Assembly (NCBI RefSeq): GCF_013315695.1
Contig: NZ_CP054353.1
Direction: 5' to 3' (one strand)
Source: Escherichia coli
GTDB taxonomy: Bacteria; Pseudomonadota; Gammaproteobacteria; Enterobacterales; Enterobacteriaceae
DNA: 64,000 nt
Shown: positions 44,701-47,700 of the stretch, piece by piece
How positions within the stretch are numbered: position 1 is the first letter of the stretch
How the letters are laid out: each line of letters starts with the position of its first letter
Program-made: the position numbers

Positions 44701-47700
44701 TCTTCGACAACGATGAGGATAAAACAGGTTCGGCAGCACTGTTGCGCTGTATCGAACAGGCCAGGGAGGGTATCCGTACCCTGCGCCAACAGTAACTTTT
44801 GCACCAGAACCAGTGAAGATCACTCACCCGATTTCACTTCCCTGACGTCAGCCTGAACACGGCTGGCGTTTTCATTTATAAACAGAAAGGAAAAATGATG
44901 ATGTCAGATACCACACTCTCCCGCCCGGAGGTGGTCAGCGGGCATACGGACGTTATCTATTCCACCTCAGTCTGCCACATTCTGGCTGTACGAAAGAGTA
45001 CACTGTTGCCAATCGACACAATTATCCGGCATCAAGTAAGCGATATCAGTTAACCGATATAGATGGGGAAGATGCTTTTATCCGGATTGGTTCTATCGCG
45101 ATGGTGCGAGTACCACTTGATGCAATGGAGCCTGTCGAGGAAGATGACGAGTAACAGAGCTCGGTATCTCAATCAGGACCTGATTGTCCTGGTTCGATGC
45201 CGAAAACCAGTGATTTTTCGTGTTGGTATCTGTGTTGGTATAGGATGGTGTTGTTTATTATTAACAATTTTAAATCATGAGGTTAAATCGCATGTTTGAG
45301 TCCGGTCTTCGCACCACATCGTATGCAAATCGAGTCGCTCAAGGGCGGCTTTTTTTGTACCTGTGTTTTCACTACTTTGTTTGCATGTAACGCTGATAAT
45401 CTAAGAACTTCGGAAGCCCCATTTCCATCAATGATGTTCATTCATCATCCTGAAAATTAAGTAGATATAAAACTTCATTGCCTTGGTCTAATGGCACAGA
45501 AATAGATTGCATTTGGCGAGTGGCATTCTTAGTGCGTCGTTGTTTAGTCATGAAACGATGCGTAAAATTGCTGATTTTATGTGTCAAAGTCCCGCAACCG
45601 GAGATGGCCTTACTTCAATGATCAACCACTATTGACGTATCCTTTTAATATCTTGATTCAATTCAGCAGGTTATCGTCCAAAGTACAGCGAAGAGAGAGA
45701 AAAGATGATTGGTACAACACCTTATCATGCGAAATATTTTGCGCATGAACTTTCCATTCTTCATTCAAACAATGGGGTGGACCGTCTGTCTCAATCGCTG
45801 TTTGATGCAAGCGTAGATCTAAACCCTCATCAAATTGAGGCGGCTCTTTTTGCTATCGAAAATCCGCTAAGCAAAGGTGTTGTGCTTGCCGATGAAGTTG
45901 GTTTGGGTAAAACCATTGAAGCTGGACTAGTGCTTTGCCAGTTGTGGGCTGAAAGAAAACGTAAACTGTTGATCATTTGTCCTGCTTCACTGCGTCGCCA
46001 ATGGGCGAGCGAGTTACAGGAAAAGTTCAATCTACCTTCTCAGGTGTTGGACGCGAAAATGTATAGCCAGCTTCAAAAAGAAGGGATCCATAATCCCTTA
46101 AATAATAAATCGATCACTATTATGTCATACCACTATGCTGCTCGGTTAGAAGAGAAATTGGTGGCTGAAATGTGGGATCTGGTTGTTATCGACGAAGCCC
46201 ATAAACTGCGTAATGCTCATCGAGAAAGCAACAAAATGGGGCAAGCGTTAAAGCGTGCGCTTGATGGGCGGAAGAAATTACTACTGACCGCAACGCCTTT
46301 ACAGAACTCGTTGATGGAACTGTATGGCATGTCGACGCTTATAGATGAACATACCTTCGGCGAAGTTAAAGCGTTCAGAAAGCAATATATGCAGGCAGAT
46401 AGCGATATTGCGGAGTTGAAGGGGCGATTGTCGCGTTTTATCAAACGAACTCTACGCAAGAATGTGCTGGAGTATATCAAGTATACAGAACGTAAAGCGA
46501 TCACTATTCCTTTCTATCCGAGCGAACAGGAGCAGGATCTTTATGAACGCGTACAAAAATTGCTTGAACGTGAGGATAGCTATGCCTTACCAAAACGACA
46601 CCGGCATCTGACGGGGCTTATACTCAGAAAACTACTTTCCTCAAGTACGAAAGCCGTATTGAATAACTTGCAGATCCTTAAGACTCGTTTAGAAAGGTTA
46701 AAGCTGGAAGGTATCGTTGAAGATGATATGGACATCATCCAACAGATCATAATGGATGATGATCTTGAAGATGACATCGTTGAAGATGCCGAATCAGTAG
46801 CGCCAGATACAGAGTGCAAATCTGTGGATTCAGATGCGCTTCAGGCAGAAATCAATGAGCTGGAATCACTCATTGTTAAAGCAGAACAGATTGGCACTGA
46901 TACCAAATCAAAAGAGTTGCTTTCTGGCCTGGAGCAAGGTTTTGCACAGCTTGCCGAAATGGGGGCTGCAAAAAAAGTCATCATCTTCACGGAGTCGATG
47001 CGAACTCAACAGTACCTTGCACATTTTCTGGAAAACAATGGCTACCAGGGAAAAGTAGTAACCTTTAGTGGCACAAACAATACACCGCAGGCAAACAAGA
47101 TCTACCAGCAATGGCGCGAGGAATATCAGGGATCTTCTCGTATTACCGGGTCGGCGCAAATTGATAAACGCTCGGCTTTGATCGACCACTTCAAAGATCA
47201 TGCTGAAATCATGATAGCTACAGAAGCTGCAGCTGAAGGGGTGAACCTGCAATTTTGTTCGCTACTGATCAATTACGATTTACCCTGGAACCCACAACGC
47301 ATTGAGCAGCGTATTGGACGTTGTCACCGATACGGGCAAAAATTTGATGTGGTTGTTATTAACTTCCTCAATCAGCGAAACCAGGCCGATCAACGCGTTC
47401 TTGAACTCTTAACTGAAAAGTTCAGCCTGTTTGATGGCGTGTTTGGCGCATCGGATAGTGTGCTTGGCAGCATAGAAAATGGTGTGGATTTTGAAAAAAG
47501 GATCCAGTCAATTTATGAGTCATGCCGTACCCCCGAGGAGATAGAGCTGGCTTTTGAAAGGTTGCAGAAAGAGCTGGAAGATGAAATCAATCTCAAGATG
47601 CAGAAGACGCAAGAACAGTTGCTTGAGCATTTTGATGAAGATATTCACGATATCCTTAAAATAAGGCTTGATGAAGCTCGGGAGCGCCTGGATAAAGTCG

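Follow-up and report, generated by a model that had tools for sequence, protein, structure and literature searches.

A probable P4-type attR at the right end of a leuX-inserted genomic island in Escherichia coli, next to a defence operon

How did the 3' end of a leucine tRNA, with no tRNA around it, come to lie between a CP4-44-like gene set and a defence-like operon? In the 64-kb stretch of E. coli DNA analysed here (hereafter the window), a first-pass annotation had read such a fragment at 45296-45316 as a direct-repeat remnant of integrase-mediated insertion at a leuX-type gene, and the segments on its two sides as separate acquisitions stacked at one hotspot. With a probability of roughly 90%, we identify 45221-45316 as attR, the right end of a genomic island that was inserted into leuX by a P4-type integrase. 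The functional attachment site is larger than the fragment itself, extending left across the spacer to include the two arm sites (45221-45240; Table 1).

Table 1. Features around the proposed right attachment site, in window coordinates
Feature	Position	Strand	Basis or remark
CP4-44-like module at the right end of the island: DUF932, antirestriction, JAB/RadC-like, DUF987, YeeU/CbtA toxin-antitoxin, DUF5983, DUF957, two pseudogene fragments	40985-45154	+	ORF calls
Two tandem arm-type integrase binding sites, TGTTGGTA	45221-45228, 45233-45240	+	P arm; 12 nt start to start
A/T-rich P-arm spacer, ending in ATGTTT as in P4 attP	45241-45297	+	Alignment with P4 attP
Putative attR core, GAGTCCGGTCTTCG-CACCA	45298-45316	+	leuX/P4 20-bp core minus one G, plus T at 45306
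Host-side leuX flank with rho-independent terminator	45317-45363	+	Stem-loop 45332-45351, T-run to 45358; terminator scan
SNF2 helicase	45705-48596	+	PADLOC DrmD, 4e-199
Type III Mod methyltransferase	48602-51721	+	PADLOC MTase_III, E=0
Type III Res	51724-55104	+	PADLOC REase_III, E=0

The leuX-derived junction and its arm sites

The sequence at 45296-45316, TTGAGTCCGGTCTTCGCACCA, is present in a single copy within the window. We compared it with leuX of E. coli O157:H16 Santai, a tRNA-Leu with anticodon CAA (ARAGORN) that adjoins ahr and ends in ...GGTTCGAGTCCGGCCTTCGGCACCA. The last 20 nt of this gene are also the annotated attachment core of phage P4, and positions 45298-45316 lie at edit distance 2 from them: C is replaced by T at 45306, and one G is absent between 45311 and 45312. 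Identity to leuX extends left to 45294 (GTT) with one further mismatch, at 45297, and left of 45294 the sequence is unrelated to leuX. The resemblance is unique, as no other site within edit distance 4 of the leuX end was found on either strand of the window, and better than chance, as none of 100 first-order-Markov random windows held a match at distance 2 or less. There is no cloverleaf body at 45296-45316; the whole window contains no tRNA gene according to ARAGORN and no tRNA family according to Rfam, which at its gathering threshold reports an IS102 sRNA only. The first pass had thus rightly described a tRNA end without a tRNA. The next 47 nt are near-identical to the flank directly 3' of intact leuX in Santai and PSS-07. 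Because they include a leuX-type terminator, the resemblance of the core is homology rather than coincidence. The island boundary carries a short duplicate of the end of its target tRNA gene.

Among 5,426 complete E. coli genomes, 2,437 gave BLAST matches to a 171-nt query spanning the site. The matches are of two kinds, running either from the left end of the query, over the island side and the core, or from its position 65, on tRNA-Leu genes. The latter adjoin ahr/yjgB and are therefore leuX, whose 3' end and downstream flank are both matched, in agreement with the target tRNA proposed at first reading. Santai, which lacks the island, provides the empty site: homology with the window begins at 45294, inside its intact leuX, with nothing matching further left, and continues through the same terminator (45332-45358) into the same SNF2/methyltransferase/helicase operon. 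This clean comparison places the right junction of an insertion into leuX at 45294-45316. Since attR ends at 45316, everything to the right of it is the former downstream region of leuX.

The window itself holds neither leuX (ARAGORN) nor a P4 Int homologue (tblastn), and attL and the integrase gene were seen in related genomes only. Over the 1.3 kb around attR (44700-46000), the window shows 100% identity to LSN03-016011/A and to CE0021a. In both strains leuX is intact, and downstream of it comes a tyrosine integrase sharing 59% identity with P4 Int across 391 residues. In LSN03-016011/A, attR lies ~53 kb from the end of leuX. The terminator behind leuX at attL of this strain is a different one, AAAGTATGTAAATAGACCTCAACTGAGGTC..., and recurs after leuX in a Salmonella record. 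Such a difference would be expected if the element supplies the 3' flank of the tRNA at attL and the original flank stays at attR. LSN03-016011/A, CE0021a, JP538, and 042 each match part of the window and none is collinear with it throughout, indicating a mosaic island. JP538 is 99.5% identical to window positions 1-29570, and its island integrase is a pseudogene. The repeats upstream of this integrase, of the TGCGGGTA type, differ from the attR arms of the window, so the two island ends may derive from different elements in some strains.

In the island integrases of LSN03-016011/A (L004 28522-28590) and CE0021a (L009 ~18473-18540), codon 18 of the P4-like N-terminus is an in-frame TAG (MALTDIKVRAAKPTDKQY-stop-LTDGG). 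RefSeq annotates a shorter ORF as intact in these cases, and the integrase may lack its arm-binding domain.

Upstream of the core, the layout is that of P4 attP. The octamer TGTTGGTA occurs only twice in the 64 kb, counting both strands, and the pair, 57 nt upstream of the core, aligns in register with the two GGGGGCA arm repeats upstream of the P4 core. In P4, the annotated core GAGTCCGGCCTTCGGCACCA (NC_001609 4078-4097) comes after ...GATGTTT, with two tandem 12-nt arm repeats ~55 nt upstream; in the window, ...GCATGTTT stands immediately 5' of the core. The T at 45297, which replaces a C of the leuX T-loop, is the base that P4 attP carries just outside its core, and because the layout matches we interpret it as arm-side sequence of the element, not as a decayed tRNA base. 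The P-arm repeats have counterparts on the P' side, as three copies of TACCAACA/TGTTGGTA lie between leuX and int in LSN03-016011/A. A leuX island with a different integrase, in PSS-07, has TGCGGGTA repeats in place of TGTTGGTA. The spacer at 45241-45297 is identical in E. coli 042, AR_0081, and TKEC21-17, has two substitutions in AR437, and occurs essentially once in each genome, in contrast to the CP4-like genes on its left. The empty site in Santai, the leuX and integrase of the attR-identical strains, and the arm-type sites all bear out the earlier suggestion of an integrase-made junction.

We propose that a genomic island of ~50 kb was inserted into the 3' end of leuX by a P4-family tyrosine integrase. 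The attP of the circular element would have had four components, namely a P arm bearing two arm-type sites, a duplicate of the leuX 3' end, a terminator of its own, and a P' arm beside int. Recombination would have set the P' side of the element after the tRNA, leaving leuX intact at attL, to the left of the window, and would have joined the P arm, together with the core copy, to the original leuX terminator, giving attR.

The operon to the right and the leuX defence hotspot

The SNF2/type III operon is followed by defence-gene remnants and then by the conserved flank nanS'-nanM-nanC-fimB. Variable defence genes between the displaced leuX end and the nan/fim flank correspond to defence hotspot #37 of E. 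coli, which is leuX, the most occupied of 41 hotspots, with an integrase next to leuX as its anchor (PMC12707154). Santai has the operon without the island, and JP538, TKEC21-17, and AR437 have the right end of the island without the operon. After the same attR, AR_0081 carries another cassette, an Eco31I-type restriction-modification system with McrBC, and TKEC21-17, AR437, and JP538 carry a short sequence resembling the left end of an island together with HNH remnants. Since island and operon occur independently of each other, their separate acquisition is supported. By its position directly after the leuX terminator, the operon is best described as a separate occupant of a known variable defence hotspot. 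The first-pass annotation had further spoken of acquisitions stacked at the hotspot; here the independence holds, but a second leuX repeat bounding the operon was not found in the window.

Stacking in the strict sense would mean that the site is at the same time the left end of an older leuX island, of which the terminator and the SNF2/type III operon remain as an integrase-less element, so that two integrase events are superimposed. We regard this as rather unlikely, with several comparisons in its favour. In PSS-07 the leuX terminator runs to ...GTGCCTG and is followed by the left end of an island and its integrase, and both Santai and the window switch to the upstream region of the operon after ...G(T/A)CCTG, a break point common with PSS-07. 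The left-end-like sequence after attR in TKEC21-17, AR437, and JP538 comes without an integrase, and true stacks at leuX do exist, in CE0021a and JP538. On the other hand, no second leuX-like repeat, integrase fragment, or P'-arm-like left end was found to the right of attR or elsewhere in the window, and replacement of cassettes by homologous recombination between the conserved flanks explains the variation equally well.

In CE0021a (L009 5433-18286), a 13-kb phage-like element separates leuX from the island integrase and has a perfect 47-nt leuX repeat at its end. In JP538 (L010 1-11040), the same place is taken by a P4-like satellite with SIR2 and ATPase cargo.

The Mod gene of the operon has a central region of ~1.5 kb (49783-51296) with almost no DNA homology to the alleles of 042 and Santai. 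The flanks of this region are 96-99% identical and the whole proteins ~65% identical, resembling a swap of the target-recognition domain.

The missing G and the position of strand exchange

The first-pass annotation had called the repeat a remnant. It is indeed homologous to the leuX end, but its imperfections are mostly the normal form of an attR and not those of a decayed relic. P arm and deleted core are shared by E. coli 042, AR_0081, TKEC21-17, and AR437, all with C at the position of 45306, and in E. coli this P arm and deleted core are joined to at least three different right flanks. On this comparison, the T at 45306 is lineage-specific decay, the sole such difference in the core.

The missing G is of another kind. 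The exact one-G-deleted 19-mer GAGTCCGGCCTTCGCACCA is found in 31 IMG/VR contigs, at the right ends of P4-like prophages. Arm repeats of the element type precede the core in all 31, which have many different P arms and over 10 host flanks; most carry the P4 alpha gene upstream, and those that reach far enough show an integrase 10-13 kb upstream and an intact leuX at attL. In a sample selected through the alpha primase, and thus independently of the core sequence, the deletion is present in 17/17 right ends with GGGGGCA arm repeats. It also accompanies a third arm type, GAGTATA (L020). An undeleted core preceded by the TTT of P4 turned up a single time, and GG is retained at all attL junctions examined.

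These observations bear on the possibility that the fragment is the displaced leuX 3' end of the host, in which the T at 45297, the T at 45306, and the missing G all arose by random decay. Copies at attR are free of tRNA selection, the T at 45306 is restricted to one lineage, and in the P4 reference the 20-bp core of attP is perfect, all of which would suit decay. Nevertheless, the same deletion recurs in every alpha-anchored right end and in the 31 exact matches among unrelated P arms and flanks, and the T at 45297 is the base present in P4; we consider decay of all three positions very improbable. Because identical independent decay is not credible, the one-G deletion is most simply element-borne, probably already present in the incoming element. 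The remaining alternative, that the similarity to the tRNA end is fortuitous or the stretch part of a protein-coding gene, can be rejected as having next to no probability: a 78-codon ORF (45063-45299) does have its stop at 45297-45299, but the random windows and the leuX-like 47 nt that follow speak against it, no RefSeq gene lies under the match in the sampled genomes carrying this attR, and the empty-site comparison refutes it.

The P4 reference attP (L012 4078-4097) has GG in its core, contrary to an element-borne deletion. Either the laboratory P4 is atypical, or the P4 sequence of 1987-1990 is wrong at the GG base. We found no independent natural attP: the phage collection contains P4 reference records only, the plasmid collection yielded nothing useful, and the IMG/VR junctions with the P4 P' arm are all attL.

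Eight of eight natural prophages with an alpha gene 98-99% identical to that of P4, and a P arm that is identical or has at most two substitutions, have the deleted core.

With GG preserved at attL, the exchange of strands is expected on its 3' side, in GCACCA. We infer an exchange within these last ~6 nt of the tRNA gene, a placement for which we see an even chance. This placement agrees with one sublocation class of integrases that target tRNA genes, the "asymmetric 3'-end" class (bioRxiv 10.1101/2020.11.02.365908). If the crossover is in GCACCA, the excised attP circle would be expected to read P arm-GAGTCCGGCCTTCG-CACCA-P' arm, with the G deleted. The attR described here may still be able to support excision. 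The P4 integrase subfamily was reportedly assigned to the asymmetric 3'-end class by Williams in 2002.

More generally, it may be that natural leuX-targeting elements of the P4 integrase family, which include satellites as well as large islands and show three or more arm-site specificities, have an attP core without one G, that the "20-bp identical core" of P4 is atypical, that exchange is confined to GCACCA, and that every attR can be distinguished from attB; the arguments for and against this generalization appear to us balanced. If it is true, the difference between attR and attB could steer new integrations to the genuine leuX copy, so that ordered stacks would build up. In the acceptor stem, U68 is present in 60 of 66 species whose leuX has G5, and may form a native G-U pair.

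Several other leuX loci are of interest. In Pantoea eucrina LMG 5346 (L183), the full-length leuX gene itself (~6173-6256) has the one-G deletion, ...CCTTCGCACCAT; it could be the reciprocal recombination product, and the deletion would leave the acceptor stem defective. Three loci (L005 6069-6120, L007 6069-6112, L060 ~8882-8915) have 3-4 tandem copies of an 8-nt unit, CTTCGCAC, inside the attR core, downstream of two different elements, one with the island P arm and one with the P4 P arm, and a "TCGGAACATCAATAGAC" variant of the terminator follows each expansion. In three records from Pantoea and Enterobacteriaceae (L148, L165, L177), leuX ends in ...GGCATTC without an encoded CCA and the downstream sequence is not island-like; such leuX loci may have escaped rebuilding by an element altogether. 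Directly 3' of leuX, island-type sequence is found in most of the 66 other species sampled.

The island and its relation to known systems

The first-pass annotation had described the segment to the left of attR as a CP4-44-like island. This fits its right-hand module only; the leuX island is a mosaic, whose left part is KpLE2-like (fec operon, nanXY). The genes of the module were named by BLAST mapping of the RefSeq annotation of DNA that is 98-99% identical (042, TKEC21-17, AR_0081). Ag43 and DUF905 also belong to the module, and further left follows an IS-rich mosaic with the fec operon, a BCCT transporter, and capU/virK. The IS102 sRNA reported by Rfam (34031-34267, 66 bits) lies just upstream of the Ag43-like autotransporter, as in the yeeP-flu region of CP4-44 in K-12. 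With P4 Int and alpha as tblastn queries, the window gave no match; what the island has in common with P4-like satellites is the att/int type only.

In practical terms, the exact right boundary of the leuX island is 45316/45317, and recognizing the SNF2/type III operon as a separate hotspot occupant helps annotation and comparative work. No new type of element is involved. The slight novelty is that the "imperfect" repeat is the regular form of attR for the P4-type integrase family; a regular attR lacking one G would aid automated callers of island boundaries, and hints at the position of the integrase cut.

An attR at leuX is an ordinary feature of known biology, given the literature on leuX islands and the leuX defence hotspot (PMC3202238, PMC9686529, PMC3032704, PMC12707154). 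The closest parallel is the attachment site of P4, which has the same target tRNA, the same 20-bp core region, ATGTTT 5' of the core, two tandem arm repeats 12 nt apart, and an integrase of the same family, 59% identical when the integrase of related strains is compared. The arm sites differ, GGGGGCA in P4 and TGTTGGTA here, the core here has one G fewer, and P4 is an 11.6-kb satellite whereas the element here is a mosaic island of ~50 kb.

PAI II536 and other UPEC islands at leuX share with the present island the leuX site, a P4-like integrase, and short direct repeats of the tRNA 3' end (PMC3202238, PMC9686529). In PAI II536, excision between the flanking repeats is driven by the P4-like integrase (PMC3202238, PMC9686529), and a "truncated" repeat at the right border has already been reported for an ST131 leuX island (PMC9686529). 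PAI II536 differs in its hly/cnf/prf cargo, none of which is present here, and in a repeat that is described as 18 bp.

Within K-12, two islands are comparable. KpLE2 occupies the same leuX site and has cargo in common with the left part of the island, i.e., the fec operon and nanXY/yjhBC (PMC3032704). In the 18-kb K-12 stretch from the right end of KpLE2 through fimB, we found no copy of attR and no annotated CP4-like genes, and homology between K-12 and the window resumes only at nanS. CP4-44 resembles the right-hand module through its GTPase, Ag43, DUF905/932, antirestriction, RadC-like, YeeU/CbtA, DUF5983, and DUF957 genes, and through the IS102 sRNA upstream of Ag43. It resides at a different chromosomal site, cobU-yeeX (PMC3032704), whereas the P arm and core described here are single-copy and leuX-specific.

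Finally, hotspot #37 matches the present locus in having variable defence cassettes beside leuX and an integrase at the left anchor, and nothing essential differs. Its occupants vary, SNF2 with type III here as opposed to Eco31I with McrBC, or HNH remnants, in other strains.
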